DNA of 64,000 nt from Chloroflexota bacterium. GTDB taxonomy: Bacteria; Chloroflexota; UBA11872. The position numbers and the translations under genes were made by a program. Positions 8,310-43,239 of this stretch are shown one piece after another (the stretch's first letter is position 1; each line of letters opens with the position of its first letter). The notes beneath the pieces were generated by a model. The model did not search any database. It was not told where the DNA came from and saw only the letters and a list, made by a program, of their open reading frames with translations. The stretch is taken from assembly GCA_965243625.1 (NCBI GenBank), contig CBDEVI010000002.1:1974525-2038524 (forward strand), read 5' to 3'.

Positions 8310-8396
8310 CTGGCGCTCGCTTTCCGGTGTTGACGGGACGGACCGGACGCCGATGGTAGCGCCGCTCGGCGTCGTGCCCCGGAGAAGAGGAAGCGC

Positions 8397-9587
8397 CTAG
8401 GCACCTTCCTCGTTGGGTTCCGCAAGGATTGCGGTGACCCGAGGCGTGACGACTTCGATGAGATGGACGAGGGTTGTCGCCAGCGTGTCGGCAAAGGCGG
8501 CGTCCAAGGCACTGCCGCGACGTGACACCAATAGCTCGTTCCACTGGCTATCAAGCGTTTGGTCATCGTAAGCCTGCGCATCGGCGAGGCGAGCAACGAC
8601 ATCAATCCCCTCGCCGCCCCGAAATCCGACATAGGCGAGCCATTGATCTAGATCGTGCTCATTCTCTTCGTGCAAGTTTATGTAGTAGAACATCGTCCAG
8701 TTGCCCCACGGCCGTCGCGCATACCACAGGTGGTAGTAGCGAAAGTCAGGACCTTGGCCTGCCCACTTGCTGCGCTTTCTCGGCCGTAGCGCGCGAGGAA
8801 GGCTTTCAATTGTGGCGTCGCCAACACCTCTGAGAAAGCGCGTCACTTCATCTCGGCTGTTCCTGGCAAAGGTCTGCGCCAGGCGACTGCCGCGTTGCCC
8901 CACGGACGGCTGCTCTGTTGAGGGATCACCTATTCCGACGAGGTAGTCGTCGACACCAGGCACGGGGATGATCGTGTTGGCCTGCACATAGAGTGAATCC
9001 GCGGCTTCATCCCGATAGGGCGTCAGTTGCACGCAGGTGATCAATTCTTCTCCGGGAGCCTTCTCGTTCAGCCAGAGCGCGGCAGACGTCACCTCCGGAG
9101 CGAATCGGTGACTGGCCAGGATAATGCGTTGATCGTTGTTCAAGGCGTTGAAGTCGTCGGCGTTCAGGTGTCGGAGTAGCCGGTCCGTGGCCTCCGACTC
9201 CGACAACTCGCCGTAATCGGCGAGCATGCGGACGATGTCTTCCGCGGTGGCGTGGTGGAGGTAGCTGGCGTACTTGATCGCCTGCCAGTGGGCATCCGCA
9301 CCCGTGTCGTCGCGCTTCAGCTCGATGATGACAAGCTTGCCGTCTGCGTCCACCGCCAGCAGGTCCAGCCGCTCGTCAGTTCGGTCAAAGCCGCTGAATT
9401 CCTTGCCGATGACCAGCAAGCCCTCACCCAAAATCCCGGGATTGGCGGCCACCCACTCTTGAATGTCGCGCCGTTCCTGAAACCCCAGGCTCGAGAATTC
9501 GACCTCCTCGATTCGCTCGGATTCGCGGTTCTCAGGATTGATTCGGAAGAGCTGTGGTTCGGCGCCCATACCGCCTCCAGGCTGCAC
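8397..9587 (-). CDS. PD-(D/E)XK nuclease superfamily protein (NucS/DUF91-like N-terminal domain plus DUF4268-like C-terminal domain)
   Basis: LDLLAVDADGKLVIIELKRD matches the RecB-like nuclease core of the NucS/DUF91 families. The C-terminal half has W/Y-rich motifs typical of DUF4268-type proteins. Confidence 0.5.
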   Translation of the reverse strand: MQPGGGMGAEPQLFRINPENRESERIEEVEFSSLGFQERRDIQEWVAANPGILGEGLLVIGKEFSGFDRTDERLDLLAVDADGKLVIIELKRDDTGADAHWQAIKYASYLHHATAEDIVRMLADYGELSESEATDRLLRHLNADDFNALNNDQRIILASHRFAPEVTSAALWLNEKAPGEELITCVQLTPYRDEAADSLYVQANTIIPVPGVDDYLVGIGDPSTEQPSVGQRGSRLAQTFARNSRDEVTRFLRGVGDATIESLPRALRPRKRSKWAGQGPDFRYYHLWYARRPWGNWTMFYYINLHEENEHDLDQWLAYVGFRGGEGIDVVARLADAQAYDDQTLDSQWNELLVSRRGSALDAAFADTLATTLVHLIEVVTPRVTAILAEPNEEGA

Positions 9588-9774
9588 TCAAGGAACCGGC
9601 CAGGTGGCCGGTCCCATTCATGGTTCGACAAGCTCACCACGAACGGGGAAGGGGAGCTTACCAATGGGCGTGAATGGACTTCCATAAGGTCATACCGACG
9701 GCAGTGGGCTAGTTGATCATCTGAGCACCGCACAGTGACCCGGCACCGGCAAGCACTCACGATTTGTCAGTTGA

Positions 9775-9850
9775 CTTGTGGGGTGGATTCCCGCCTTCGC
9801 GGGAATGACGGACTCACGGTCGCCCACTGTCGAAGCGAAAGCCACTCAGG
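9775..9850. repeat. REP/MITE-like intergenic repeat (family A: GGTGGATTCCCGCCTTCGCGGGAATGACGGACTCA)
   Basis: Palindromic core ATTCCCGC-CTTC-GCGGGAAT, shared with at least 9 other loci in this window. Confidence 0.8.
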
Positions 9851-9949
9851 CGGCAGTTGCTGGGGAGGCATGGCAGCGGTGACGCGGCCGTCTGAGACGA
9901 CGGCGCTTACCATGCGGCCAATGAGCCGCTGCGCCCAGGAGTCACTGCG

Positions 9950-11257
9950 ATGACCGAGTCCCAGATCCGCGAGCGAGTGTTGGCCGAGGTGGATGCGCTG
10001 GCCGATGACCTGGTCCAGATGACCATCGACACCGTCCGCATTCCGTCGGTGAATCCGACCTATCCGGGCATCGACCAGGAGGCGGCGCGCGGCGGCGAGA
10101 CCCGCGTGAACGAGTTCTGCCAGCCGCTGATGGAGGCCGCGGGCCTGGAGACCGACCTGTGGGAAGCGGAAGAGGGCCGGGCGAACCTTGCCGGCAGGCT
10201 CAGCGGCGCGGGTGGGGGCCGCTCGCTGCTTTTCAACGGCCACGTGGACGTGGTGCCGCCTGGACCGGACGCCAATTGGAGCAAGGCCGGGCCGTGGAGC
10301 GGCGAGGTCATCGACGGCAAGATCTGGGGGCGCGGCTCGTGCGACATGAAGGGCGGCAACGCCGCCGCGCTGACGGCGTTGCGCGCGGTATTGCAGGCGG
10401 GCCTGCACCCCAAGGGCGACGTGATCCTCGAGTTCGTCGTGGGCGAGGAGATGATGAACACCGAGGCCGGCACCGGCGCGGCCATCGAGCGCGGCTACAC
10501 CGCGGACGCGGCGATCGTGGCCGAGGCGTCCGGCCCTCCCCACCGCCTGGGCATCATCCCGGCCTCGCCCGGCCTGCTCTACATGGCGCTGACGATCAAA
10601 GGCCGGGCGGTGCACGCCTCGATGCGCGACGAGCTGATTCGCGCGGGCGGCGGCGGCGCGGCCATCGGCGTGTCCTCCATTGACAAGGCGCAGCTGATCA
10701 TGGACGGCCTGCGCCAGCTCGAGGAGGAGTGGGGTCAGACCAAGTCCCACCCGATGTTCAAGCGTCCCGGGCACTTCACGATCTATCCGGGCTTGGTGCA
10801 GGGCGGTCCGAACGGGCCGTTCGTGATTTCGGAAGAGAGCCGCGTGGAGTACGCGATCTGGCACCCGCCGCAGGAGCCGGTGGAGGACGTGAGGGCCGAG
10901 ATCGAGACCCACATCGCGCGCGTGGCGGCCACGGACTCTTGGCTGCGGGACAACCCGCCCAACGTCGAGTGGCTGCTCTGGTGGCCGCCGTTCGACGTGT
11001 CGCCCGACGAGCCGATCTGCAAGGCGCTCGAGGCGGCCTACACGGGCGTATTCGGCACCGAAGCGCCCTACTACGGCTTCGCCGCCGTCGACGACGGGGC
11101 GTTCCTGAACCGCGCGGGAATCCCGGCCATCACCATCGGGCCGGGGAGCCTGCTGGTGGCGCACGGTCCCGACGAGCACGTGGAGATCGCCGAGTTGATC
11201 GACGCGGCCAAGATCTACGCGCTGGCGATCGTCGAGTGGTGCGGCGCCGCATCATAG
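9950..11257 (+). CDS. M20 family metallopeptidase (ArgE/DapE/acetylornithine deacetylase-like)
   Basis: LLFNGHVDVVPPG, GRGSCDMKGG and EFVVGEEMMNTEAG are the canonical M20 metal-binding segments. Confidence 0.85.
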   Translation: MTESQIRERVLAEVDALADDLVQMTIDTVRIPSVNPTYPGIDQEAARGGETRVNEFCQPLMEAAGLETDLWEAEEGRANLAGRLSGAGGGRSLLFNGHVDVVPPGPDANWSKAGPWSGEVIDGKIWGRGSCDMKGGNAAALTALRAVLQAGLHPKGDVILEFVVGEEMMNTEAGTGAAIERGYTADAAIVAEASGPPHRLGIIPASPGLLYMALTIKGRAVHASMRDELIRAGGGGAAIGVSSIDKAQLIMDGLRQLEEEWGQTKSHPMFKRPGHFTIYPGLVQGGPNGPFVISEESRVEYAIWHPPQEPVEDVRAEIETHIARVAATDSWLRDNPPNVEWLLWWPPFDVSPDEPICKALEAAYTGVFGTEAPYYGFAAVDDGAFLNRAGIPAITIGPGSLLVAHGPDEHVEIAELIDAAKIYALAIVEWCGAAS

Positions 11258-11294
11258 GATCGGAGGCAGACTCCAGCGGACGGAGGCTCCCCGC

Positions 11295-12182
11295 ATGAGT
11301 CGCACCCACTCCTGCGAACCCACGATGACGGATGAGGACGTGGTGCGGTTCTGCCGCAACGGCTACTGGATTCTCGAAGCGGCGGTGCCGGACGAGATCA
11401 ACCGGCGAGCGCTGGACTATCTGGCGTCGAACACGAGCGGGGAACCCACTGAAATCCTGCACGAGGACTGGTTCGTCGACGGCGTGATTCTCAACCCGGC
11501 GGCCGCTGGAGCGGTGCGCTCGCTGCTGGGCGACGGCTTCGCCCTGCCGACGCTGATGGCCAATCACCGGGGCCGGGGACCGGCCAAACCCCAGGATTGG
11601 CACCGGGACAGCGGCTCACGCCACGGCCCGGAACTCAACTACCTGCAGGTCTTCTACTACCCCCAGGACGTGCCGCCGGAGATGGGTCCCACGGAGCTGC
11701 TGCCGGGCTCGCACTTCCTCTACCAGCGGGAAAAGCACATGGCGCATTACGGTGCGATCAAGGGCGGCGTGCTCACCAGCGGGCCGGCCGGTTCGATCTT
11801 CATCACCGCCTACAACATCTGGCACCGTCGGGCGGCTCGCACGGCGCCTGCGGCGGCCGGCGTGCGCCACTTGCTCAAATACAACTACTGGCGGACGGTC
11901 GACCCGAGGCGAGACTGGATCGTGAACCCGGAGTTCGACGTCGCGTCGGCGGATTTCGTTGTCGACGGGCTGAGGTTCGCCGACGGGGTCCGAGATTGCG
12001 TCGACGCGGCCGAGATGTATTTCTGGCTCTGCGGGAAGATCGACGAGTTTCACTACCTGGGCGGTCAGTCGTGGCCCGCGGACATCCTGCTGACCAAGCC
12101 GGCTCCCGGTTCCCACGAACGCGCCAGGTACCGCCAGCGCTTCGGCGTGCCGGGCGACATGACCGATCGACGGGAGAGGTGA
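11295..12182 (+). CDS. phytanoyl-CoA dioxygenase (PhyH) family Fe(II)/2OG-dependent oxygenase
   Basis: WHRDSG (HxD), ELLPGSHF and NIWHRR follow the PhyH architecture. GGAGG RBS. A paralog of 17010-17918. Confidence 0.8.
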   Translation: MSRTHSCEPTMTDEDVVRFCRNGYWILEAAVPDEINRRALDYLASNTSGEPTEILHEDWFVDGVILNPAAAGAVRSLLGDGFALPTLMANHRGRGPAKPQDWHRDSGSRHGPELNYLQVFYYPQDVPPEMGPTELLPGSHFLYQREKHMAHYGAIKGGVLTSGPAGSIFITAYNIWHRRAARTAPAAAGVRHLLKYNYWRTVDPRRDWIVNPEFDVASADFVVDGLRFADGVRDCVDAAEMYFWLCGKIDEFHYLGGQSWPADILLTKPAPGSHERARYRQRFGVPGDMTDRRER

Positions 12183-12199
12183 TCCGAGCGCCGCCGATG

Positions 12200-12430
12200 A
12201 GTTGAGGGGCGGCCGCGGCCAACCTCCAGGTTCGACCGAACTGGATTCCGGCTTCCGCCGGAATGACGGAGGGACTACGCAAGCGTCTCCTACCCTGGGA
12301 GCCCTTTGCAGAACCCGGCCAAGCTTGAGGATGACCTGGCGCACCATATCCACCCCCAGATTCAATGAGGGGTGGATTCCCGCCTTCGCGGGAATGACGA
12401 AGGATTACGCAAGGGAGTTTATATACGTAA
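12200..12430. repeat. composite REP/MITE-like intergenic repeat (two family-A palindromes: GGATTCCGGCTTCCGCCGGAATGACGG and GGTGGATTCCCGCCTTCGCGGGAATGACGAAGG)
   Basis: Same modules as at 20893, 31652, 32575, 34042, 40508 and 42573. Confidence 0.8.
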
Positions 12431-12448
12431 GTGCCCACGGGTCGGTAG

Positions 12449-12847
12449 CTAGCCCGGTCGACCGTCGCGGACGAGCCGGCAGCTCTGAGGGTCGACATAG
12501 CCCGAGCCCGTGCCCTGCAGCCGCACCCCAAAGGCGTTCAGCCACGAGTACTGCATCACGACGTAGTGCGTGCCGTCCGCTACCGGCTCTCTCGTGAACC
12601 GCGTCTCCACATGCTGGAAGCTGTCCGGTGAGAGCAAGTCCTGTTTCATCAGCTCCACCAGCCCGCCGTGTGAGCCGTCCCACGGATCGAGGCACCGCTC
12701 GGACCAACTGGGCGTCGGCGTCGGCGTGGCGCGTCGCTGCTCCTGGATCTCGCGGACCCGCCCCATATCGGCGTTGAACGAGGCACAGATACCGATGGCC
12801 CCGACTGCTGCTGCGATCCCCACGATCCAGAGTGCGACACGCCGCAT
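12449..12847 (-). CDS. hypothetical N-terminally membrane-anchored protein
   Basis: Strong AGGAGGA RBS 5 nt upstream of the ATG. N-terminal TM helix, then a Cys-containing soluble domain. No family recognised. Confidence 0.5.
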   Translation of the reverse strand: MRRVALWIVGIAAAVGAIGICASFNADMGRVREIQEQRRATPTPTPSWSERCLDPWDGSHGGLVELMKQDLLSPDSFQHVETRFTREPVADGTHYVVMQYSWLNAFGVRLQGTGSGYVDPQSCRLVRDGRPG

Positions 12848-13094
12848 CCCGTCCTCCTGCTACCAGACAGCCCCAGCGTGAGCCGCTGGGGCGCGTTTCC
12901 CAGTACCAGTAGGACAAGCCCCGCAGCCCGCACTGGGGCTGCCGGGAAACGCGCACGCGCCTTGCGACGCCTGCGGTCCTACTGGTGCGCGGAGGGTAGC
13001 AGGTCACAAACTTGTCAACCGTTGTCGAACGGCACGGCCACGCCGTACACTCAAGGCCCGGACAGAGAGAGTCCGGCTGGCGAGAGGGACTGCC

Positions 13095-13352
13095 ATGACC
13101 CCGGAGACTGCAGCGTTGTCCCGAGAGATTGTTGCCTACGAGTTTATGCGCGACGAACTGGAAGCCGAACACTTCGGCCGGTGGATCGTCGTGCACGACG
13201 AAGAAGTGTTTGGCATCTACGATGATCTTCAAGAGGCGGCGGATGCCGCCGTGCGCAACTTTGGACGCGGGCCGTTTTTGCTTCGCCAGATCGGCGAGCC
13301 GTCGACGGCACTGCCAGCGTCGGTGATGCAACCGGTCAATGCCGACAGCTAG
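13095..13352 (+). CDS. hypothetical small protein (85 aa) overlapping the start of the retropepsin-like gene
   Basis: GAGAGGGA RBS. Acidic 85-aa product. Its 3' end overlaps the downstream gene by 14 nt. Confidence 0.45.
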   Translation: MTPETAALSREIVAYEFMRDELEAEHFGRWIVVHDEEVFGIYDDLQEAADAAVRNFGRGPFLLRQIGEPSTALPASVMQPVNADS

Positions 13353-13812
13353 CTGTGGGTTCGTCGGACAGCCAGACTTGCTGTGGACGCATGGACCTAC
13401 GCTCCCTGTGCAGATTGGATTCGATGCGACATTTCAGGCGGGTGTAACACCGCGGGCAGACATTTCGGGTCCACAGCTGCCCGCTCTAGTCGACACAGGG
13501 GCGTACGAGAGTTCCGTTGACTCAATGCTGGCTGAAGCGTTGAAGCTACCCGTCGTTGGACGACGAGAAGTCGCAGGAAGCGCGGGGCCGCATACCGTCA
13601 ACCGCCACTTGGCCCAGATTTACGTCCCGACGCTGGACTACACAATCTATGGACTCTTCGACGGCGTTCACCTATTGGCCGGTGGTCAGCGACACGTGGC
13701 CCTGATTGGCCGGCTGTTCTTGCGAAGCTTTACGCTGACCTACGATGGCCTCACCGGTGCGGCGACCATCAGCAACGATGCGCACATTCGAACTGGGTCT
13801 ATAGGACCGTAG
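13339..13812 (+). CDS. retropepsin-like (clan AA) aspartic protease
   Basis: Catalytic LVDTGAYESSV (D-T-G-A) and the flap/dimerisation motif ALIGRLFL (hh-G-R-x-h-L) of retroviral-type and bacterial TIGR02281/03698-type aspartic proteases. Confidence 0.6.
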   Translation: MPTASCGFVGQPDLLWTHGPTLPVQIGFDATFQAGVTPRADISGPQLPALVDTGAYESSVDSMLAEALKLPVVGRREVAGSAGPHTVNRHLAQIYVPTLDYTIYGLFDGVHLLAGGQRHVALIGRLFLRSFTLTYDGLTGAATISNDAHIRTGSIGP

Positions 13813-13837
13813 TCCCCACCGGCAGCGACGGTCCGAG

Positions 13838-14041
13838 TTAGTCGGCGTCCGGCTGTTCGGTCGTCGGGGGCTTCGGAGCCGGCTTGAGGTACTCCCACTC
13901 ACCGGGCTTCCTCGGCGGGCTGGTCATCAGCGCGCGCGCCACCGCCTCCGGGGTGTCGGGAATCGGCTCGGGCATCGGCCTGGGCGGGCGGCCCCGCTTG
14001 CGGCGTGGACCAGATGGTGTACTCATCAACTCACTTGCCAA
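13838..14041 (-). CDS. hypothetical small basic/Pro-rich protein
   Basis: Last of four co-oriented, abutting small ORFs in the lower-GC island. No family recognised. Confidence 0.3.
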   Translation of the reverse strand: MASELMSTPSGPRRKRGRPPRPMPEPIPDTPEAVARALMTSPPRKPGEWEYLKPAPKPPTTEQPDAD

Positions 14042-14045
14042 TCAT

Positions 14046-14246
14046 TCAGGTTCGATTGTTGGCCGCTGACTTCAGCCGCTCATACTCTGCGTCCCGCTCG
14101 GCGTTCTTATGCAGCTGTGCATACTCCTTCTCGAGCTGTCGATCAATGTGCCAGTGCCAGGCGATGCACCCGCTGGCTATCACAGTCCCGCCTGCCCAGA
14201 TGAGTCCACCAATCAACCAGTTCGTATGCGGCAACACGAAATCCAT
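14046..14246 (-). CDS. hypothetical small membrane protein (N-terminal TM plus coiled coil; holin-like, speculative)
   Basis: TM segment LIGGLIWAGGTVIASGCIAW followed by a charged helical tail. Its start abuts the stop of the upstream ORF. Confidence 0.35.
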   Translation of the reverse strand: MDFVLPHTNWLIGGLIWAGGTVIASGCIAWHWHIDRQLEKEYAQLHKNAERDAEYERLKSAANNRT

Positions 14247-14521
14247 TAGCCACTACCATTGCTGACCGCCGTGATGACTGCCGTGATCAGCCCGGAGGCC
14301 AGAATGGCTCCTGGCGTCACAAACACCAAGCACACGGTTGCCGCACCAAGTGCGACTTGAGCCTTCGTCGGTCGCTGGCGAATCTCAGTCAGCGCAACCG
14401 TCGCATCCGCCTGCGCCTTGGAGAGGTCCTCGCGTAGCTTGAGAACCTCTGCGCTTAGATGCTCGGTGGTCGTAATCCCCTCACCTGATGCAGGCGGACG
14501 CGACGGGTCTTGGTGGCTCAC
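14246..14521 (-). CDS. hypothetical small membrane protein (coiled coil plus C-terminal TM; XhlA-like, speculative)
   Basis: Coiled-coil EVLKLREDLSKAQADATVALTEIRQR followed by the TM segment LVFVTPGAILASGLITAVITAV. Overlaps the upstream ORF by 4 nt. Confidence 0.35.
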   Translation of the reverse strand: MSHQDPSRPPASGEGITTTEHLSAEVLKLREDLSKAQADATVALTEIRQRPTKAQVALGAATVCLVFVTPGAILASGLITAVITAVSNGSG

Positions 14522-14805
14522 TCGTGAAAGACCTTCTGACCCTTAATCCAGTCCCACACGCGGGGGTCAAAGAATCCGGCGAATCCGCCATTCAGGCTGA
14601 TAACGATCCCGCATGTGTCTGCGGTTGCTGCTTGTCCCCCAATGCCGAGTTCATCTCTGATCGCCGGTGCCAACTTTGCACTGCGAATCATCACCGTCGT
14701 TTCCGACACGGGAAAATAGTCCCCCGTCGGCTCATACAGATTCTTGGCCCGCCCAAGCACCTCCTCATCAGCGCTGTCCAGCATGACTGCGAACAACTGC
14801 GCCAT
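14518..14805 (-). CDS. hypothetical protein (96 aa)
   Basis: Very strong RBS GAAGGAGG 5 nt upstream of the ATG at 14805. First gene of the four-gene small-ORF string downstream of the IS1595 transposase. Confidence 0.45.
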   Translation of the reverse strand: MAQLFAVMLDSADEEVLGRAKNLYEPTGDYFPVSETTVMIRSAKLAPAIRDELGIGGQAATADTCGIVISLNGGFAGFFDPRVWDWIKGQKVFHE

Positions 14806-14893
14806 GGCTACCTCCTTCAACCGACACCCTCCCAATGACTCCTAGCTTGCCTCAGGGGTGTCGGCCTTACCTCATGATCACACGGCTGTCAAG

Positions 14894-15999
14894 GCTGGCT
14901 CAACAAACCGCTCGTAGCAAGCCGCGAAAATATATCAGCATCTAGCAAGTGCCGTGGACAAGCCGCCAGAAGCCGGCTAGGCCACTACTGCCGCGCCGGA
15001 TACGCAGGCCCACCGGCAATCAGATCCCGGTAGCGCAGCCGCTTCCCCAGCATCCCGCGCGCCATCGCCTTCATCTGGTCGATCGTGTCGAGCGAGCGGC
15101 GGTTGTGCCGGCCCTCAAACTCCCGCACGTAGCGCGGCAGATGCTTCGGCGACATCTTGTGGTAGGTGCCGTGGTAGCTGCGCTTCAGCAGGCTCCAGAA
15201 ACTCTCGAGGCCATTCGTATGCGCCTGCCCGTCGACGTACTGGCCGACGGAATGCTTGACGGCCTGGTGGTTCGGCAGACCCCGGTAGGCCGTCGCCTCG
15301 TCCGTGTAGATCAGCGCGTCGGCCTCGGTGTGGTCCCGCACGAATTCCTGGAGTGTGGCCAGCTTCGTATCCGGCACCACGGCGGCGCTCACGCGGCCCG
15401 TCGCCCGGTCTTTCACGCCGGCGACCGCCACCTTACCGACCGTGCCGCGTCCGGCGTTCAATCGCTTGGAGGCGTGCTTGTTCTTCTCCTTGCCGCCCAC
15501 AAGCGTCTCATCGGCTTCCACCGGTCCTTCGAACGGTTCGGTCTGCTGATCGCGCCAGGTCTCGCGGATCCGGTGGGCGAGGTGCCACGCGGATTTCTGC
15601 GTGATCCCGATGTCCCGGTGCAGCTTCATCGACGCCGTGCCCTTGATGCCGGTCGTCAACAGGAAGGTCGCCAGCGCCCAGACCTGGTAGCCCAGCTTCG
15701 AGCTTTCCATCACCGTGCCGGTCCGGGTGCTGAACCGCTTGCGGCAGTCGCGGCAGCGGTACGGCATCGTCTTGTGCGCCGCGTTCGCCTGGACGCGGTC
15801 GGAGTCGCAATGGGGGCAGCGTGGGCCATCCGGCCAGCGGGCGTCGGCGAACCATGCCTCAGCCGCCGCGTCGTCGGGGAACCGGCGAAAGAACTCCACC
15901 AGGGTGATGCCCTTCCGGTAGTGCTGGCCAGGGGCGCTGCGGGCCATCCGTCGTCCTCAGGGTTTGTATGGATATACGGAAGTATAGTGCCCAATCGTT
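14894..15999. mobile_element. candidate IS1595-family insertion sequence (about 1.1 kb) delimited by an 11-bp direct repeat CGGCTGTCAAG
   Basis: A single transposase ORF. Identical 11-mers at 14883-14893 and 16000-16010 are a candidate target-site duplication. Terminal inverted repeats could not be confirmed by eye. Confidence 0.45.
14985..15947 (-). CDS. IS1595 family transposase (N-terminal zinc-ribbon plus ISXO2-like DDE domain)
   Basis: CPHCDSDRV...YRCRDCRKRFSTRTGT zinc-ribbon. DDE region: ADETLVGGKEKNKH...IYTDEATAYRGL...NGLESFWSLLKRSYHGTYH. Confidence 0.85.
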   Translation of the reverse strand: MARSAPGQHYRKGITLVEFFRRFPDDAAAEAWFADARWPDGPRCPHCDSDRVQANAAHKTMPYRCRDCRKRFSTRTGTVMESSKLGYQVWALATFLLTTGIKGTASMKLHRDIGITQKSAWHLAHRIRETWRDQQTEPFEGPVEADETLVGGKEKNKHASKRLNAGRGTVGKVAVAGVKDRATGRVSAAVVPDTKLATLQEFVRDHTEADALIYTDEATAYRGLPNHQAVKHSVGQYVDGQAHTNGLESFWSLLKRSYHGTYHKMSPKHLPRYVREFEGRHNRRSLDTIDQMKAMARGMLGKRLRYRDLIAGGPAYPARQ

Positions 16000-16644
16000 C
16001 GGCTGTCAAGTATCCGCCTCCAGCGTGACAGCACGATCCAGATCAGCACCCGTGATACCCTCAGCGCCCCCTTCGGAACCGGGCAATTGAGCATGGCGAA
16101 CCAGCGAATTGACCTCGTGGATGAGATCGTGAACATATGGCCTCACATGCTTCAGGAAGGATCTGACCGGTCGCCACGTCTTGTGGTGACCATTGACTGT
16201 CGACCATCCGAGGTGGACTTCACCTATGTGACAGGACCGCAGCTCAAGCGGGGGGTTCTGGTTGGCGACGTATCCCCGCTGAGGTCTGAGCCGGTGACGC
16301 GAGCACTGGGTCTGACGCTTGACGATGCCGAGACCCTTCACCGCCGACTTCGCGGCTTTCTCCGAGCGTTTCGAGAATGGCCTCGAACCGAACAAGATCA
16401 GCCATAGACTTCGCCTCGTCGGCTGTCTTCAGCCTCTCGTCTTCCAATCCCGGCGGGTCGTTGGCTGTCATCGTAAGCCTCCCTTCGAGAGCACCGCCGC
16501 TTGGGCACTTTGGTATATAAACTCCTACGCAAGGGTCTACCTGGGGAGTGATGCGAGGTGACCCAGGGGTCCCCGAATGGGCCGGCAGGCGCGAGCTAGG
16601 ATGGGAGGCGCGAGCGCCACGGCGCGATCGGCGGAGGTCTGCTG

Positions 16645-17013
16645 ATGAAGGACCTGCGGCAGATGGTGCGGCAGTGCATCGACGAGCTGCGCGAAGGGCG
16701 GCTGACCGAGGAGCGGCTGCGCGAGCTGGAGGACGCCGTCGGCGCGGAGAAGCCGCGGCGCTGGGATCTGCTTTACCTCCAGGCGGCCAAGACGTCGGAA
16801 GTGTCCGACGTGGTCGGCATGCGCATGATCCGCGACGGCGAGGTGGTCTATCCGCTGCCGCCGCCCGAAGACTGGCCCTATAAGACTGTCCTGGAGGCCA
16901 TCAACGACGGCTGGCGGGTGGTGAAGTTTCCCGAGCTGTCGCTGCTGATGGACGAGGGCCGCACCTATGGACTCTCTTGCGAGTTCATCCTGGAACGGAG
17001 GGCGACCGCATGA
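16645..17013 (+). CDS. hypothetical protein (122 aa), translationally coupled (ATGA) to the downstream PhyH-family gene
   Basis: The ORF ends in the ATGA overlap with the ATG at 17010. No family recognised. Confidence 0.4.
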   Translation: MKDLRQMVRQCIDELREGRLTEERLRELEDAVGAEKPRRWDLLYLQAAKTSEVSDVVGMRMIRDGEVVYPLPPPEDWPYKTVLEAINDGWRVVKFPELSLLMDEGRTYGLSCEFILERRATA

Positions 17014-17918
17014 CGCTGACCAAGCGCACCTATTCCTGCGCGCCCACCCTGACCGACGACGACGTGATCTGGTTCTGCCGCAACGGCTACTGGATCCTGG
17101 AAGGCGTGGTGCCGGACGAGATCAACCGGCGGGCCATGGTCTACCTGGACGACCATCCCATCTCCGAACCCTCGGAGATCCTGGAAGAAGACTGGTTCGT
17201 CGAGAACGTGATCTGCAATCCGGCGGCGGCCGGGGCGGTGCGCTCCCTCCTGGGCGACAACTTCACCCTGCCGGTCCTGATGTCGAATCATCGCGGCACT
17301 GCTCCGCGGCATCCGCAGGACTGGCACCGGGACGGCGGCTCGCGCTATGGCCCGGAGGTGAACTACCTCCAGGTCTTCTACTACCCGCAAGACGTGCCGC
17401 CGGAAATGGGCCCGACTGAGCTGCTGCCGGGCTCGCACTTTCTCTACCAGCGCGAGAAGCACATGGCGCACTACGACGCCATCAAGGGCAGCGTGCTGAC
17501 GGCGGCGCCGGCGGGCTCGATCTTCCTCACGTCCTACAACATCTGGCACCGGCGCGGGGCACGAACGGCGCCGACCGGGATTCGCAACCTGCTCAAATAC
17601 AACTACTGGCGCACGGAGGACCCCAAGCGCGACTGGATCCAGGAGCCGGACTTCAACCTCGAGTTTGCCGACTTCGTGGTGGACACGTTGCGCCACTCGG
17701 AGCTGATGCGGGACTGCGTGGACGCCGCCGAGATGTACTTCTGGCTCTGCGGCAAGTCCGACGAGTTTCAATACCTGGGCGGCCAGGGCTGGCCGGGCGA
17801 CATTCCCGAGAACAAGGCCACGCCCGAGGCGATCGAGCGCACGCGCTACCGCCACCGCTACGGCGTGCCGGGCGACATGACCGATCGAGGGAACAAGCGC
17901 GCGGCGCGCATCTGGTGA
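17010..17918 (+). CDS. phytanoyl-CoA dioxygenase (PhyH) family oxygenase
   Basis: Close paralog of 11295-12182 (CRNGYWILE...VPDEINRRA...WHRDGGSRYGPEVNYLQVFYYPQDVPPEMGPTELLPGSHF). Confidence 0.8.
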   Translation: MTLTKRTYSCAPTLTDDDVIWFCRNGYWILEGVVPDEINRRAMVYLDDHPISEPSEILEEDWFVENVICNPAAAGAVRSLLGDNFTLPVLMSNHRGTAPRHPQDWHRDGGSRYGPEVNYLQVFYYPQDVPPEMGPTELLPGSHFLYQREKHMAHYDAIKGSVLTAAPAGSIFLTSYNIWHRRGARTAPTGIRNLLKYNYWRTEDPKRDWIQEPDFNLEFADFVVDTLRHSELMRDCVDAAEMYFWLCGKSDEFQYLGGQGWPGDIPENKATPEAIERTRYRHRYGVPGDMTDRGNKRAARIW

Positions 17919-17919
17919 C

Positions 17920-18771
17920 ATGAGCTGGGATATCGAGCGGCACGCGACCGAGCTCGAGCGCGACGGCTACACGATCCTGGAGCGGGTGCTGCCGCAGGAC
18001 GAAATCGACGCCTCGGTCGCGGCGATCGAGGAGACGCTGGCCTCCGAGGAGACCATCGGGCGCAAATACGGCCTGCAGAGCGCCAACCTGCGGATGGTGT
18101 TCAACGCGCAGGCCAAGCACCGGCACTTCCACGGCCTGCCGCTGCGCTACCCGGCCCCGATTGAGGTGGCGCGGCGGGTGCTGGGCGAGGACATGTTTGC
18201 CCACGACGTCACGATCCGCGTGCCCATGCCGACCGGGGAGAAGGACCACAAACGCTTCGGCGGCAACCTGCACGCCGACTGGAGCGATTTCACGGTCAAG
18301 CCGTTCGTGGGCGGGCGGCACTACCCGCTGGGCATCCAGGCGGCCTGGGCCCTGACGGAATTCTCAACGACGACCGGTGGGCCGGTGGTCTGGCCAGGGT
18401 CGCACCTCACCACCGAGATCCCGCCCGAGGACTCGGTGTCGCTTCCGCCCGGATGGAAGATTGCCGAAGCTCCGGCGGGATCGGTGCTGATGTGGGACGC
18501 CAGTTTGTGGCACACCGGCGGCACGAATCGCGGCGACGGCCCACGCTACTCGCTGATCCTGTTCTTCCAACGCTGGTGGGTGAAGGGCTTCAACGACGCG
18601 TATCGCTACATGCCCCCCGAGATGCGTGCGCAGATGTCGCTGGACGAGCGGAAGCTCTGGGGACAGGAGGCCGGGGTTCCGCCGAACACGCATTTCCGCG
18701 GCATGAGCCAGGAGCAGATCGAGGCCCTGACGCCGGAGGAGCAGGCCGTCCTCAACATCGCGGCGTATTAG
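17920..18771 (+). CDS. phytanoyl-CoA dioxygenase (PhyH) family oxygenase
   Basis: Immediately follows the previous gene: the stop TGA at 17916-17918 is followed by the ATG at 17920. ELERDGYTILERVLPQDEI, HADWS, VWPGSHL and MWDASLWHTGGTN follow the PhyH pattern. Confidence 0.75.
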   Translation: MSWDIERHATELERDGYTILERVLPQDEIDASVAAIEETLASEETIGRKYGLQSANLRMVFNAQAKHRHFHGLPLRYPAPIEVARRVLGEDMFAHDVTIRVPMPTGEKDHKRFGGNLHADWSDFTVKPFVGGRHYPLGIQAAWALTEFSTTTGGPVVWPGSHLTTEIPPEDSVSLPPGWKIAEAPAGSVLMWDASLWHTGGTNRGDGPRYSLILFFQRWWVKGFNDAYRYMPPEMRAQMSLDERKLWGQEAGVPPNTHFRGMSQEQIEALTPEEQAVLNIAAY

Positions 18772-18796
18772 GACGGGCCGCGGTGGGGACCGGAAT

Positions 18797-19080
18797 TGTC
18801 ATTCCGAGCGCAGTGAGGAATCTAAGGGCGTTGTGCTTGTTGCCGGCCCCTTAGATTCCTCGCCGAGCCTCGGAATGACGGATAGAGGGCGCAAGTTGTC
18901 GCGGGCCACGGCCACCGCGTGGCCGCTGCCGCGGAACTGGAGATTCCTCGCTGAGCCCCCGAATGACCGCGGCGAGTCATTGGACATGTCATTTCGAACG
19001 GAGTGAGAAATCTAAGGACGTTGTGCCTGCTTTCCGCCCCTTAGATTCCTCGCCGAGCCTCGGAATGACAAAAATGGGGC
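18797..19080. repeat. tandem long inverted-repeat hairpins (family B: GTCATTCCGAGCGCAGTGAGGAATCTAAGG...CCTTAGATTCCTCGCCGAGCCTCGGAATGAC)
   Basis: Two complete hairpins with stems of about 34 bp (18797-18878 and 18975-19078) plus a half-unit near 18940. Related units are at 40425-40455 and 40618-40650. Probable REP/terminator role after the stop at 18771. Confidence 0.8.
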
Positions 19081-19172
19081 GTGGAAGAGGGTCCGCACCG
19101 CGCGCGCGTTGACGTTCGTCCAACCGCGCGCATAGCATCGGCCCGCAGCGCCAGCCCAGCGAGGGAGCCGCC

Positions 19173-19862
19173 ATGTCGGTATCCGGGCCGCTCGACGAAA
19201 CCACCTTTGCCGCGCTGAAGGCCGCCGACAGCCCCACCGTGTCGAACGCCATCGAGGAGCTGGGCGTGCGCGACCACCGGGTCGGGTTCGCCGGGTCGAC
19301 CGTGCGCTGTATATACCCGGAGCTTAGCGTCACGCTGGGCTATGCCGTCACCGCGCAAATCGACACCACGGGACCCGGCCCGATCGAGGTTGGCCGCGGC
19401 ATGCGCGAGTTCGCCGAGCTTTTGGCCGCCGCCCCCAAACCCGCGATCGTCGTGGTGCAGGACGTCGGGCCGCACAAGGCGCGCGCGGCGATGTTTGGCG
19501 ACTACGCCGCCACGCTCTACCGCGCGCTGGGCGCGGTGGCCTTCGTCACCGACGGCGCCATTCGCGACATTGACCAAATGCGCGAGATGCGCTTTCCGTG
19601 CTTCGCGGCGGGCACGTCGGTCTCCCACGGCAACCCGCGGCGCATCACCATGGACATTCCGATCGAGATCGACGGCATGGTGGTCGAGCCGGGCGACCTG
19701 ATCCACGGCGACGTGAACGGTCTGCTCAACGTGCCGCTGGCGGCCGCACCGGACCTGCCGGCGCAGATCGAGCACGTGCGCGTCACGGAGCGGGCGGCCA
19801 TGGACGCGCTGGTCGGCCCGAATGCGTCGGTGGACGAGGCGCTCTCCAAGATGGGGCACTGA
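19173..19862 (+). CDS. RraA-like protein (RraA / 4-hydroxy-4-methyl-2-oxoglutarate aldolase / DMK methyltransferase-like fold)
   Basis: VVQDVGPHKARAAMFGDYAATLYRALGAVAFVTDGAIRD...PCFAAGTSVSHG matches the RraA-family core. Confidence 0.8.
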   Translation: MSVSGPLDETTFAALKAADSPTVSNAIEELGVRDHRVGFAGSTVRCIYPELSVTLGYAVTAQIDTTGPGPIEVGRGMREFAELLAAAPKPAIVVVQDVGPHKARAAMFGDYAATLYRALGAVAFVTDGAIRDIDQMREMRFPCFAAGTSVSHGNPRRITMDIPIEIDGMVVEPGDLIHGDVNGLLNVPLAAAPDLPAQIEHVRVTERAAMDALVGPNASVDEALSKMGH

Positions 19863-19865
19863 GCG

Positions 19866-20750
19866 ATGGCGTTGAAATACTCGGTAGTGCTGGCGACGCT
19901 GGCGAGCAGTCCCGGCGGACAGGTGTGGGAGGACCCGGACACGGTGCTGGGCGCCGTGGCCGACGCGGGCTACGACGGCGTCGACCTGGACGCCGAGCCC
20001 GACCGCATCGACAACGCGCTGTTCTACGCCGTGGTCGACAAGGCGCGGAACCTGGGGCTGCGGATTCCCTCGCTGCTCGGGGCGTGGGGCGGCTGGCACG
20101 CCGGCGAGGAGCGGGACCTGGCATCGAGCGATGAGTCGAAGCGCAGCTACGCCGTCGACTACGCCAAGCGCTGCCTGGACCTGGGCGCGACGCTGGACGA
20201 GCCGCCGGTGTATGAAATCTGCGCCGTGTCGTTCGTGCCCGAGTATCCGGTGACCAGCAAGCCGCTAACGAAGCTGCGAAGCCAGTTCGAGCGGTCGGCG
20301 CGCGAGATCGCGGCTCACGCCGAATCCGTGGGTGTGCCGGTGGCCATCGAGTCCGTCAATCGCTTCGAGGGCTACGCCGGGTTCATGAATTCGGTCGTCG
20401 AGGCGGTCGCGGTGGTCGAGGCGGTCGGGTCGGACCACCTGGGCATCGTGGCCGACTTCTTCCACCTCAACATCGAGGACGGTCCGGTCACCGAGGCGCT
20501 GCGGACCGCGGGCAAGCACCTCATGCACATCCACTTGGCCGACAGCAATCGCCAGATGCCCGGGACTGGCCATCTCGACTTCAGCGACATCGTGCGCGTG
20601 CTGGATGCCATCGGCTACGAGGGCTATCTCTCGATCGACTGCGTGCCGGCCAAACCCGATTGGCGCACCGTGCTCACGTCCACGCGCGAATTCATGGGCC
20701 AGATCGAGGCCGGCGTGGACCTGCAGCGGCGGCTGGCGAGCGTCGCGTAG
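19866..20750 (+). CDS. sugar phosphate isomerase/epimerase (xylose isomerase-like TIM barrel)
   Basis: AGYDGVDLD...ESVNRFEGY...MHIHLADSNRQMPGTGHLDF...GYEGYLSIDCVP. Confidence 0.8.
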   Translation: MALKYSVVLATLASSPGGQVWEDPDTVLGAVADAGYDGVDLDAEPDRIDNALFYAVVDKARNLGLRIPSLLGAWGGWHAGEERDLASSDESKRSYAVDYAKRCLDLGATLDEPPVYEICAVSFVPEYPVTSKPLTKLRSQFERSAREIAAHAESVGVPVAIESVNRFEGYAGFMNSVVEAVAVVEAVGSDHLGIVADFFHLNIEDGPVTEALRTAGKHLMHIHLADSNRQMPGTGHLDFSDIVRVLDAIGYEGYLSIDCVPAKPDWRTVLTSTREFMGQIEAGVDLQRRLASVA

Positions 20751-40784: not shown

Positions 40785-41648
40785 CTAGCCGCCGGCGGCT
40801 CGCTGCCGTTCGGCGCGGACTTTGGCGGAGAGCGCGGCGAGGTGGCCGTCGTTGGCGAGGCGCTGTTCCAGGTGGCGCATGCGCTCCGGCGAGGCGGTTT
40901 GGAGCATCACGTCGCCGTAGGCGCGCTCCATCTCGTGCCGTGACAGATTGGCAACCGACTTTCGAACGGGCTCCAAGTCGTCGTCGGGTTGCCGCGCCTG
41001 CATGTTGATGGTGAACATGCGCCGCCGCGTGCCGCCCCCGAACGACGCGTGCTTGATCTCGTGATTGAATACCAGGACGTCGCCGGGTTGGGTTTCCAGC
41101 GCCACGGACGGCACCTCGGTCCCTGACAGGCCCCAGGTCTTCTCGGGCAGCGACGCGCGCTCGTCGAGCGGCGTGCGGTAGTAGTCGACCGCGCCCAACA
41201 TCCGCCAGAAGCGGCCGCCCTTGTGGTGGCTGCCCGGAATCACCCGCAGGCTGCCGGACGCGGCGTCCAGCGGATCCAGGTAGAACGCGGTCTTGATGGG
41301 GAGCTTGGCTCCCCAGCTCGTGTCGGAATGCCAGGGCGTATCGCCGCTGTAGACGTTGCCGTCGCTGGTCATGTAATTGAAATCCTCGCCGCAGATCGAG
41401 GACCCGATGCCGACGACCCGCGGGTCGTCGAGCAGCGAGCTCAGATATGGGTGCTGGTCGATGAACGGCACCACCACCGTCAGCCGCTCGTTCAGGTCGT
41501 CCGCCGCCCCGTCGAGCCCGCCGCCATTGGCGGTCCACACCTCGCGGAAGGCGTCGTTGAGCGCGTCGACCTCGTCGCGAAAGAGGCCCCGCAACGCCAG
41601 GTAGCCGAAGGTCTTGAAGAATCGCAGTTGTTGCTCGGTGAGTTGCAT
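40785..41648 (-). CDS. phytanoyl-CoA dioxygenase (PhyH) family oxygenase
   Basis: MQLTEQQLRFFKTFGYLALRGLFRDEV...PWHSDTSW...VIPGSHH...VFNHEIKHASFGG. The ORF is open to 41816, but the ATG at 41648 fits the family N-terminus. Confidence 0.7.
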   Translation of the reverse strand: MQLTEQQLRFFKTFGYLALRGLFRDEVDALNDAFREVWTANGGGLDGAADDLNERLTVVVPFIDQHPYLSSLLDDPRVVGIGSSICGEDFNYMTSDGNVYSGDTPWHSDTSWGAKLPIKTAFYLDPLDAASGSLRVIPGSHHKGGRFWRMLGAVDYYRTPLDERASLPEKTWGLSGTEVPSVALETQPGDVLVFNHEIKHASFGGGTRRRMFTINMQARQPDDDLEPVRKSVANLSRHEMERAYGDVMLQTASPERMRHLEQRLANDGHLAALSAKVRAERQRAAGG

Positions 41649-41809
41649 GGCGCTCTCCGATCCGCTCGTGCACCCGGGCCCGCCCCCAAGAATGCTGCCA
41701 CCTTCGGGGGCGCCGCGCCAGCCGCGGTCGCGCCTGGCTTGGGGCGCGATCCGCCGCTGGCCCGAATAGCCCGCCCAACCGCGGATCGCTATGCTCAAGC
41801 GCCCACCGA

Positions 41810-42391
41810 GTGCCACCCAGACGATCGGCCATGCGCTACATCAGCCGAAATGAGCTATTCGGCTACGGTTTTCTGACCGGTGCGGTGGTGGTGCTGTCGC
41901 TGCCGCTGTTTCCGTACCAGTGGCACGTGTTCATGCATGTGGCCGGCGCGGTGGTCTTCCTCGGCAACATTATTGTCACCGGCGTGTGGATGCTGCTGGC
42001 GGAGCGGACGCGGAGCATCCCAGTGATCCACTTCTCGGCCAAGGCGGTGATCCGGGCCGATTTCCTGTTCACATTGCCGGGCGTTCTGCTGCTGGTGATC
42101 AATGGGATCGTGATGGTGGTTGCCCGGTGGGGCGGGTGGGACGCGTTTCACCAGATCTCGTGGGTCACCGTTGCGCTGGGGTTGTTCATCGCGTCCGGCG
42201 TGATCTGGGTGGGCGCCCTGCTCCCCGCCCAACATCGGATGGCGGTGTTTTCGGACCCGTCGGCCTATCCGGAGTCTCTGCCGCCGCGCTTCGTCTCGGC
42301 GATCCGTCAGTGGTATTTCTGGGGCGTGCTGGCGATTCTGCTCCCCGTCGTCTCGCTCTACCTGATGGTCCACAAGCCGGCGTTCGGATAA
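41810..42391 (+). CDS. hypothetical polytopic membrane protein (DUF2269-like)
   Basis: Four predicted TM helices. No RBS is obvious at either the 41810 or the 41831 ATG. Confidence 0.5.
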   Translation: MPPRRSAMRYISRNELFGYGFLTGAVVVLSLPLFPYQWHVFMHVAGAVVFLGNIIVTGVWMLLAERTRSIPVIHFSAKAVIRADFLFTLPGVLLLVINGIVMVVARWGGWDAFHQISWVTVALGLFIASGVIWVGALLPAQHRMAVFSDPSAYPESLPPRFVSAIRQWYFWGVLAILLPVVSLYLMVHKPAFG

Positions 42392-42479
42392 GGCGCTGCG
42401 ACGGAGATTTCCGGAACCCCGGCGGTCCGACCGGTCGAGGCGCCCGAAACCACGGCAGCTGTGACGCAGCAGGGGTCTC

Positions 42480-42700
42480 ACTGCGAGGTAGCGAGCGGCA
42501 TTGACTATCGGACCACCGGATGGCTTCGCCTCGGCGTCGGGCCCCCTTGATTCGTCCAGTGACACGCTGGGGTGGATTCCCGCCTTCGCGGGAATCACAA
42601 AGGACTACGCAGAGGACTCCCTTCGCGGGAATGACGGACTCGAATTGACCCGATACTCATTTAGAAGCAAGCGTCGTGATATATTGTTTGGCCAATACCG
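42480..42700. repeat. composite REP/MITE-like repeat (GGGTGGATTCCCGCCTTCGCGGGAATCACAAAGGACTACGCAGAGG plus CTTCGCGGGAATGACGGACTCGAATTGACC)
   Basis: Family-A modules as elsewhere. Confidence 0.75.
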
Positions 42701-42741
42701 TCGCTTTATTTCTGATTTTCCTTACATGAGAGGAGAACGAT

Positions 42742-43239
42742 TTGACGGAAATCGACGAGGTCTTGGCTAGCAGCGCCAGCTATGCGGCAAGCTTCCGCGC
42801 GGGGGATTTGACCGCATCGCCCGGGCGCAGCCTTGCGGTAGTGGCGTGCGCGGACGCGCGCATTGACGTGCACAGAATCCTGGGGCTCAAGGAGGGCGAC
42901 GCTCACGTCCTCCGAAACGCGGGAGGCGTGATTACCGACGATGTGATTCGGTCGCTGATCATTTCCCAGCGACTGCTCGGCACCCGCGAGGTCATGGTCA
43001 TCCATCACACCGACTGCGGCATGCTGAAATTCCGCGACGACGACTTCAAGGACGAAATTGAAGCCGAAACGGGGATTCGTCCGGCATTCGCGCTCGAAGC
43101 GTTCGCGGATCTCGACCAGAATATGCGGCAATCCATTGCTCGAATCCACGCCAGCCCGTTTATTCCACACAAAGACCAGATTCGGGGGTTCATCTACGAT
43201 TGCGCCTCTGGAAAGCTCTCGGAGGTCCTGGATTCATAG
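42742..43239 (+). CDS. beta-class carbonic anhydrase
   Basis: TTG start with GAGAGGAGAA RBS. VVACADAR (CxDxR) and VIHHTDCG (HxxCG) zinc ligand motifs. Confidence 0.85.
   Translation: MTEIDEVLASSASYAASFRAGDLTASPGRSLAVVACADARIDVHRILGLKEGDAHVLRNAGGVITDDVIRSLIISQRLLGTREVMVIHHTDCGMLKFRDDDFKDEIEAETGIRPAFALEAFADLDQNMRQSIARIHASPFIPHKDQIRGFIYDCASGKLSEVLDS

Follow-up and report, generated by a model that had tools for sequence, protein, structure and literature searches.

What is the segment of lowered GC content that lies around positions 12440-16640 of a 64,000-nucleotide stretch (below: the window) from a Chloroflexota bacterium (contig CBDEVI010000002.1 of assembly GCA_965243625.1)? An earlier note had described it as a horizontally acquired island between two sets of repetitive extragenic palindromic (REP) repeats, with an IS1595-family transposase as one of its passengers, together with a retropepsin-like aspartic protease and six short orphan open reading frames (ORFs). 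The present analysis indicates instead that positions 12414-16525 are, with high confidence, a single 4,112-bp transposon of the IS1595 family of insertion sequences (IS), which carries passenger genes and is inserted in a REP-like unit, and thus, that the whole island is the transposon and the transposase is not its passenger.

Ends of the element and target site

The boundaries of the element are marked by a 33-nt inverted repeat, found by a repeat search, the arms of which agree at 28 of 33 positions and are identical in their outer 13 nt (GGAGTTTATATAC), so that the end sequences read GGAGTTTATATAC..AAGTGCCCA. On the outer side, both arms are directly abutted by a perfect 8-bp direct repeat, TACGCAAG (Table 1). 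The limits of 12440 and 16640 that had been assigned to the island are replaced by those which the inverted repeats and the target duplication define. The perfection of the duplication and the identity of the outermost 13 nt suggest that the insertion is recent.

The REP-like unit consists of a hairpin with an 8-bp stem, GGATTCCCGCCTTCGCGGGAATGACG, followed by a conserved tail. A pattern search of the 64-kb window recovered nine copies (at 9785, 12243, 12374, 20904, 31661, 32585, 34057, 40512 and 42574), all of them on the plus strand, compared with an expectation of zero. The variants of the stem are compensatory (CCCGC...GCGGG versus CCGGC...GCCGG), and the hairpin folds as predicted. Hence, the REP repeats on both sides of the island are real, but they represent the target of the element rather than its boundaries, as the element lies inside one unit, copy 2 of two, where the duplicated target begins 6 nt 3' of the hairpin stem. 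Joining position 12413 to position 16534 in silico rebuilds a complete unit, ...GGAATGACGAAGGATTACGCAAGGGTCTACC..., in agreement with the copies at 20904, 31661 and 32585. Therefore, the repeat fragment that had been noticed near 16525 is genuine and constitutes the other half of the unit that was broken by the insertion. The tail of the unit may simply offer a locally AT-richer site in a genome with 67% GC.

The insertion site is the intergenic region between two PhyH-like genes. A scan for tRNA genes across 9000-20000 found none, no integrase is present nearby in the ORF list, and an Rfam scan of 12000-17000 gave no match. The site belongs to a tandem array of PhyH-like dioxygenase paralogs (11295-12182 and 16977-17918, also 17920-18771), the nearest two of which are about 77% identical in DNA. 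A gene of 122 aa (16645-17013) overlaps the start of the next PhyH-like paralog and has no match in Pfam.

In terms of mechanism, the transposon entered the second of the two REP-like units between the PhyH-like genes, and the 8 bp TACGCAAG were duplicated in the process. By analogy with other DDE transposases, the 320-aa enzyme would bind both 33-nt repeats and move the intervening DNA as a unit.

The empty site in related genomes

The exact protein encoded by 16645-17013 is also encoded by 11 other public contigs, six of which were retrieved (L174-L179). These six are syntenic with the flanks of the window at 92-95% nucleotide identity and share with it the gene order M20 peptidase, PhyH-like protein of 295 aa, 122-aa gene, PhyH-like protein of 302 aa and PhyH-like protein of 283 aa, but the island is present in none of them. 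Where the window contains the island and one or both REP-like units, the flanks are joined in the relatives by 7-9 bp. In L174, window positions 9903-12290 and 16545-18869 align 7 bp apart, and a single, uninterrupted REP unit carries the unoccupied equivalent of the target (TACGCGAG; TTACGCGAGGG); in L175-L179, the flanks are 9 bp apart, and neither a REP unit nor the island is present. The copy number of the unit at this site thus varies between zero, one and two among the relatives and the window. This comparison demonstrates an insertion polymorphism, as all six syntenic relatives lack the element and one of them has an intact target unit, and it supports the acquisition of the segment, as the earlier note had proposed.

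The same data could be read in the opposite direction, with the element being ancestral at the site and lost from the relatives by precise excision or by deletion. The site is indeed unstable in the relatives, which contain zero or one REP unit, so that deletions or gains do occur there. However, the element is missing from all six relatives in two different configurations of the site, the REP unit of L174 is uninterrupted with an unoccupied target, and the target duplication is perfect, as is the identity of the outer 13 nt of the ends. Furthermore, DDE elements rarely excise so precisely that an intact REP unit is left behind. Ancestral presence followed by loss is accordingly considered very improbable, and the acquisition of a single transposon is the reading that is pursued below.

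Composition of the segment

The GC content was scanned over the 64-kb window in 400-nt windows, in 64 windows of 1 kb and in 125 overlapping windows of 2 kb. The 400-nt windows across 14000-14999 contain 57.8-59.0% GC, compared with 65-71% in the flanks, and the lowest value of all 1-kb windows, 58.3%, is that of 14001-15000. Among the 2-kb windows, 13001-15000 is the minimum (60.5% versus 67.1%, z -3.1), and its tetranucleotide distance to the mean of the whole window is the second largest (z 3.4). The reported drop in GC relative to the flanks is thus confirmed on quantitative analysis, although the trough is patchy. The transposase (67.5%), orf132 (66.9%) and orf67 (69.6%) are at the level of the host, whereas low values are found for the protease pair (59.6%), a module of three small genes (58.6%) and the stretch of 545 bp from the transposase to the right end of the element in the window (58.5%). 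The GC content of third codon positions (GC3) shows the same pattern, with 0.89 for the transposase, 0.83 for orf132, 0.86-0.90 for the flanking genes and 0.58-0.71 for the remaining cargo ORFs. This mosaic, in which some genes are host-like and other modules have 58-60% GC, suggests that the cargo was collected from several sources.

A lineage of related elements with variable cargo

A scan with the transposase against one genome per species yielded 413 relatives, the best 80 of which (59-70% identical) were fetched as loci L001-L080. The elements of 40 of these could be delineated, and all ORFs of the resulting set of 41 elements, including that of the window, were clustered. The record titles of the relatives span Chloroflexota, Binatia, Latescibacterota, Acidimicrobiia, Gemmatimonadota (Longimicrobiales), Acidobacteriota, Alpha- and Gammaproteobacteria and Thermodesulfobacteriota, and in some of them the candidate genus of the host, Candidatus Poriferisodalis or Candidatus Spongiisocius, suggests by its name a sponge symbiont. 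In most of the fetched loci, inverted repeats of the form GGGRATTATATAC...AGTGCCCA enclose the transposase, a motif that the window element shares, and about 20 relatives have a perfect 8-bp duplication, which usually is AT-rich and comprises assorted 8-mers. Related IS1595 elements are present in three to five copies in several of the relatives' genomes.

The relatives measure 2.3-5 kb, and none has the size of a bare IS, i.e. about 1.1 kb. The common layout of the 41 elements consists of the left repeat, the transposase, variable cargo, a small ORF and the right repeat. The cargo of the relatives consists mostly of genes for DNA modification or restriction, in metagenome-assembled genomes from at least nine phyla. 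It includes N6_N4 methylases, some of which are fused to HNH or T5orf172 domains, adenine methylases of the EcoRI type, a protein with GmrSD_N and HNH domains and a DndB-like protein; examples are found at L051 8975-10393, L057 9022-10374, L072 8940-9878, L060 8972-11061 and L003 3975-5234. From the cargo of the window element, only orf67 recurs in the 80 fetched loci. The lineage always carries cargo, and most of its members also carry the conserved small ORF.

Orf67 represents this small ORF. In a tblastn search it had matches in 26 related loci, on the strand of the transposase, and at least 33 elements of the delineated set of 41 (that of the window included) have a member of its family, usually near the transposase-distal (right) end. 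The small ORF exists in two related forms, RGRP...PIPDTPENVARAL...PPK..EWxYL, to which orf67 belongs, and YQPTKAE...IPxTPExLxKAV. For the core of the orf67 family, the ratio of nonsynonymous to synonymous substitution (dN/dS) has a pairwise median of 0.54; it is below 1 in 96% of the pairs and amounts to 0.22-0.25 in the closest ones, indicating that orf67 is a protein under constraint and not merely conserved DNA at the end of the element. Orf67 has no match in Pfam, and a description of such a conserved small basic ORF was not found in the literature, in a search that did not cover ISfinder. We hypothesize that it may assist transposition as an accessory factor that either binds DNA or has a regulatory role.

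The transposase and its promoter

The transposase is intact, as had been noted before. It scores 136.3 bits against PF12762 (cut-off 27), with profile positions 3-153 of 153 covered, 36.9 bits against PF12760 for its N-terminal zinc ribbon (cut-off 25.4) and 184.2 bits against NF033547 (cut-off 75). In an alignment of the 41 transposases, the positions with at least 95% conservation include the zinc ribbon residues C44, C47, C65 and C68 as well as D146, D216, E248 and K255. The best relatives from the genome scan have 59-70% identity, and plasmid-borne ones reach at most 43%. An exact look-up of the transposase and of the protein P0121 (see below) in a contig index, in which the source genome is not included, gave no match.

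The start of the transposase gene has a GAGGA ribosome-binding site (RBS), and 27 nt upstream of it lies the only good sigma-70-like site within 12200-16700. This promoter-like site contains an inverted copy of the inner motif of the terminal repeats, TGGGCACTAT. The same arrangement of promoter and inner repeat is found in L002 and L033, while the relatives with a short leader have a direct copy, ATAGTGCCCA, near the -10 region. The motif probably serves as an operator for autoregulation, so that the transposase, by binding to the copy of the inner repeat in the promoter, would repress its own gene.

The repeat-like sequence at 15968-15994 had also been considered as the trace of a fusion between a mini-element of about 560 bp without transposase (a miniature inverted-repeat transposable element, MITE) and a truncated IS; this idea was rejected because the same motif occurs in the transposase promoters of relatives, in either orientation. 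A further inverted repeat of 23 nt (14906-14928 and 16349-16371, 87% complementary) brackets the transposase and its promoter, and it might be due to chance or might be an inversion site.

Table 1. Coordinates of the transposon, its target site and its genes (positions of the window)
Feature	Position	Strand	Basis and remarks
REP-like unit copy 1, intact	12243..12300	+	8-bp-stem hairpin and conserved 3' tail; pattern search, alignment, folding
REP-like unit copy 2, left part, broken by the insertion	12374..12413	+	terminates in the target duplication
Target-site duplication, left copy TACGCAAG	12406..12413	.	read from the sequence
IRR, transposase-distal inverted repeat GGAGTTTATATACGTAAGTGCCCACGGGTCGGT	12414..12446	+	28/33 match to the other arm
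orf132	12449..12847	-	N-terminal hydrophobic segment (maximum 2.4, residue 4), domain of ~75 aa; RBS AGGAGG
Protease partner, 85 aa, DUF5678-like	13095..13352	+	sub-cut-off Pfam score; 14-nt overlap of its stop with the start of the protease gene
Single-domain retropepsin-like aspartic protease, 157 aa	13339..13812	+	D52-T53-G54-A55; I123-G124-R125
orf67, small basic protein KRGRPP...PEPIPDTPEAVARAL...PPRK..EWEYL	13838..14041	-	tblastn, clustering; start may be ATG 14026
orf66, third gene of the module	14046..14246	-	N-terminal transmembrane helix (hydrophobicity 1.75 at residue 11), charged helical tail
orf91, second gene of the module	14246..14521	-	coiled-coil-like N-terminus, EIRQRPTK, C-terminal transmembrane helix
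orf95, first gene of the module	14518..14805	-	ATG 14805 likely start (105-aa ORF from TTG 14835 in the earlier note); strong RBS GAAGGAGG
IS1595-family DDE transposase, 320 aa, intact	14985..15947	-	family scores, conserved residues
Promoter-like site of the transposase	15981..16009	-	TTGACA, 17 nt, TATACT; 11/12 consensus positions
Candidate cargo ORF, 106 aa	16087..16407	+	antisense to the transposase; no clear RBS; globular-looking sequence
Alternative candidate ORF, 75 aa	16244..16471	-	sense to the transposase; RBS GGGAGG; low-complexity C-terminal half
IRL, transposase-proximal inverted repeat GGAGTTTATATACCAAAGTGCCCAAGCGGCGGT (minus strand)	16493..16525	-	repeat search
Target duplication, right copy TACGCAAG (16526-16533), and rest of the broken REP-like unit	16526..16545	+	

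The partner-protease pair

The assignment of one cargo gene as a retropepsin-like aspartic protease holds, as both the DTGA and the IGR motif are present and the protein has 451 homologs of 146-158 aa at 50-62% identity, many of which carry precomputed PF13975, PF13650 or PF00077 annotations. The window protease itself remains below the Pfam cut-offs (PF13975 23.4 bits, cut-off 28.2; PF13650 20.2 bits, cut-off 24.3) and has no match in NCBIfam. Invariant in the alignment of the family are LVDTGA, ALIGRxFL and an N-terminal CGF, and the best relatives of the family profile among solved structures are the retropepsin-like domains of Ddi1, which are aligned over DTGA with an E-value of 0.025.

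The small gene that precedes and overlaps the protease gene encodes a partner that is 46-77% identical to eight database proteins. Its DUF5678 score is 16.8 bits versus a cut-off of 23.2, and four of five family members are similarly weak; a search of PDB sequences with the partner profile gave no match. In all 87 testable loci (89 loci, two of which are ended by a contig edge), the gene immediately preceding that of the protease, in the same orientation, encodes a homolog of the partner. In 27 long loci, 129 neighbour proteins gave 124 Pfam families, mostly housekeeping ones (e.g. DnaE, AspRS, ThiG, PdxA and trp genes); ResIII is found in three proteins, and no transposase family is among the 25 most frequent. 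The strict co-occurrence together with the variability of the neighbours indicates an obligate, free-standing two-gene module, and its location on a transposon, as observed here, is unusual.

An association of the pair with defence islands was considered and is unsupported, the neighbours being mainly of the housekeeping type. In L084-L088 and L081, the pair is situated between a gene for a ResIII helicase/nuclease and an N6_N4 methylase gene, which appears to be a restriction-modification or defence locus.

The function of the pair can be addressed only tentatively. It could be a toxin-antitoxin-like system or a protease that is controlled by an inhibitor, with the conserved C-terminal tail of the partner (LPASV...PV) blocking the active site, an assignment that is our best guess but that we regard as somewhat doubtful. 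Searches of Pfam, NCBIfam and PADLOC with the pair found no known toxin, antitoxin or defence model. A literature search on DUF5678 gave nothing relevant, and one for retropepsins in combination with antitoxins yielded only a mention of small proteins of the retropepsin type near archaeal type III CRISPR loci.

The orf95/orf91/orf66 module

Downstream of the transposase follow orf95, orf91 and orf66, with stops and starts that abut or overlap (the start of orf66 is at the stop of orf91). Orf95 is identical to the NCBI protein P0121 and 60% identical to P0122, which is carried by L090 together with genes of 90 and 67 aa, the products of which share 62% and 47% identity with orf91 and orf66, respectively. 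The module of L090 is situated between an inverted repeat of the family type and a transposase that is 71% identical to that of the window, in the opposite orientation. At 1891-2011 of L090, two IS1595-family elements adjoin each other with 120 bp between their ends, and the left one carries the module antisense to the transposase.

A profile search with orf95 against 1.84 billion representatives revealed 140 distant relatives of about 90 aa, three of which were looked up on their own contigs (L171, L172 and L173). In both L171 and L172, an orf91 homolog comes after the orf95 relative; L171 has a third small membrane ORF behind these two, and in L172, HNH and HTH_7 genes flank the locus. In L173, the orf95 relative is followed by a 164-aa protein with transmembrane and coiled-coil segments and adjoins an IS1595 transposase that is 55% identical to that of the window, with an end of the family type near. 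Orf91 homologs thus exist in L090 (62%), L171 (44%) and L172 (38%), in each case directly after an orf95 homolog, and three of the five contexts of orf95 are IS1595 elements.

The orf95 family has no match in Pfam, PDB or PHROGs. An AlphaFold2 model of orf95 with a predicted local distance difference test score (pLDDT) of 83 has the order beta-alpha-beta-beta-alpha-beta-alpha, for which a ferredoxin-like fold is predicted. The best fold matches in the PDB are Cas2-like but weak (7vxr_B, E-value 0.022, template modelling score 0.59). A Cas2/VapD-like nuclease is not supported, since the fold matches are weak and the position after strand 1, where a conserved acidic residue would be expected, is variable in the alignment of the family. 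In summary, the module comprises a predicted soluble ferredoxin-like protein and two predicted single-pass membrane proteins, and it recurs beside IS1595 transposases.

Orf132 and the ORFs near the proximal end

Residues 52-126 of orf132 match hypothetical proteins on five plasmids (best E-value 2e-10), and a protein of identical sequence is known from an NCBI genome. From its N-terminal hydrophobic segment, orf132 is predicted to be a secreted or membrane-anchored protein. Two further ORFs, at 16087-16407 and 16244-16471, overlap each other on opposite strands between IRL and the transposase promoter. The codon-position GC of the latter is atypical, and in limited searches, neither had a homolog in the fetched loci or a match in the family libraries; for the former, this also applies to plasmids.

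Therefore, the characterization of the short ORFs as orphans can be upheld only in part. The ORFs are present, and RBSs and overlaps of stops and starts are found among them, but six of them have homologs (the partner, orf67, orf95, orf91, orf66 and orf132), and orphan status is retained, after limited searches, by only one or two ORFs at 16087-16471.

It might be asked whether the short ORFs of low GC content are genes at all, or whether they are the non-coding debris of decayed genes, so that the element would be an IS with junk DNA. This view could draw on the low GC3 (0.58-0.71, far below the 0.83-0.90 of host genes), on the lack of matches to curated families and on the ORFs at 16087-16471, for which no homolog was found in the limited searches of fetched loci, plasmids and family libraries. 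However, the partner, the protease, orf95, orf91, orf66 and orf67 all have full-length homologs, with identities of 38-77%, in unrelated contexts and with the gene order kept. In addition, the fold of orf95 is predicted with confidence (pLDDT 83), stops and starts overlap, RBSs are present, and the dN/dS of orf67 is below 1. The chance that the cargo is debris is thus very small, and the idea remains only for 16087-16471.

Does the segment move as one unit?

Several observations weigh against a single transposon with functional passengers, or at least complicate this interpretation. An exact search for the terminal repeats in metagenome contigs found no other copy, and thus, the single visible copy means that the movement of exactly this 4.1-kb unit has been observed once. 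In most relatives, the left end is about 85 bp from the start of the transposase, and the small ORF is beside the right end; the window element has about 490 bp extra at the left end and about 1.4 kb extra on the side of the small ORF, from which it follows that the unit has been remodelled. An internal search for traces of older ends found none. Searches of PADLOC, NCBIfam and PHROGs with all cargo ORFs gave no usable match, and no Pfam match was above the cut-off. The window protease departs from near-invariant residues of its family (C59 to S, I60 to V), and the AlphaFold model of the partner has a pLDDT of 55.6, which is too low for a fold search.

The assignment to a subgroup is tentative. 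Members of the ISNwi1 subgroup, as described by Siguier, Gagnevin and Chandler 2009 and in ISfinder, reportedly generate 8-bp duplications, have ends of the form ggnnatTAT and, with passenger genes, a size of 1,750-4,750 bp. The ends of the window element, GGAGTTTAT, match this reported consensus at eight of nine positions, and those of relatives with GGGGATTAT at nine of nine; the length of 4,112 bp falls into the reported range. A literature search on ISNwi1 gave nothing useful, and a comparison of the whole element with plasmids gave no match.

An islet that was acquired otherwise, e.g. by recombination at REP repeats, with a smaller IS1595 element inside and outer repeats that are coincidental, would agree with the REP-like units that flank the segment, with the mosaic composition and with the imperfect 23-nt inverted repeat around the transposase, but it is extremely improbable, because the outer repeats hold the end motif common to the 40 relatives exactly at a perfect 8-bp duplication, no ends of the family type lie close around the transposase (the sole internal match being the promoter motif, which is conserved in relatives), relatives of the lineage never have a size of about 1.1 kb, excision restores one REP unit exactly, and neither a tRNA gene nor an integrase is nearby. 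A single transposon with passenger genes thus remains the preferred reading of the locus.

Other variable segments of the window

Positions 8364-9902 form another segment that is strain-specific, with a length of 1,539 bp and a GC content of about 60%; in L175, 51 bp are found instead, between the BNR_2 and M20 peptidase genes. It contains an ORF of 396 aa (8397-9587, minus strand) with an endonuclease domain of the NucS_C type (E-value 1.9e-07), and it ends beside the REP-like unit at 9785. Another stretch of low GC content, 41500-44000 (61.3%, z -2.7), with raised tetranucleotide distance and the REP-like unit at 42574, contains an ORF (42742-43239) with only a partial match to beta-carbonic anhydrases and may be a further variable region.

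Implications

What had been a low-GC island is now defined as a mobile element with exact limits and a documented empty site, which is useful for annotation and for comparisons at the strain level. Two widespread and unstudied modules are highlighted, the partner-protease pair with more than 450 homologs and the orf95/orf91 module, and the conserved small ORF of the lineage is a testable candidate for a transposition factor. The current understanding is not overturned, as passenger-carrying IS1595 elements have been known since 2009, and the novelty is descriptive: it lies in the lineage with its constant presence of cargo and, in most members, of the conserved small ORF, and in the two recurrent modules.

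A much wider interpretation would be that this IS1595 lineage is a specialised carrier of defence and addiction modules across phyla, that the small ORF is an undescribed transposition factor, and that both modules of the window element are new conflict systems, i.e. a protease-based toxin-antitoxin or abortive-infection pair and a membrane-acting orf95/orf91/orf66 system. We offer this combination as a speculation and consider it unlikely to hold as a whole.

Comparison with known systems

The insertion into a REP-like unit has precedents. IS1397 of E. coli and ISPpu10 of Pseudomonas putida are said to insert in REP or BIME (bacterial interspersed mosaic element) repeats, and the window element likewise lies inside such a unit. 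In contrast to them, however, no specificity for REP sequences is evident in this lineage, as the relatives of the window element duplicate assorted AT-rich 8-mers.

The protease resembles the retropepsins of clan AA (PF13975, PF13650, PF00077 and the Ddi1 domain) in having DTGA followed later by IGR and in its length of about 150 aa, which is consistent with a homodimeric retropepsin. It differs from them in that its family has the invariant N-terminal CGF and always follows a small partner gene for about 82 aa; to our knowledge, no retropepsin family with CGF and an obligate small upstream partner has been described. With type II toxin-antitoxin systems, the pair shares the organization as an operon of two genes, of which the small one comes first and overlaps the second with its stop, the strict co-occurrence without conserved neighbours and a location that at times is between restriction-modification genes and here is on a transposon. 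Unlike these systems, it has no sequence relation to known families, the partner has no recognised DNA-binding domain, and most neighbours are housekeeping genes. We know of no established protease toxins of the partner-protease type.

The closest known system is the IS1595 family itself. The concept of the 'transporter IS', an IS that carries passenger genes, originates from the IS1595 paper (PMC3129680, PMC9330008). With this family and its ISNwi1 subgroup, the window element shares the transposase with zinc ribbon and DDE domain, the terminal inverted repeats and the 8-bp duplication. Its transposase sets it apart, with at most 70% identity to any genome hit and at most 43% to any plasmid-borne one. 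It differs from its IS1595 relatives in that its cargo does not consist of a DNA methylase or nuclease and is located on both sides of the transposase, and its lineage has the small basic ORF that is conserved mostly close to the distal end and for which, outside ISfinder, no description was found.

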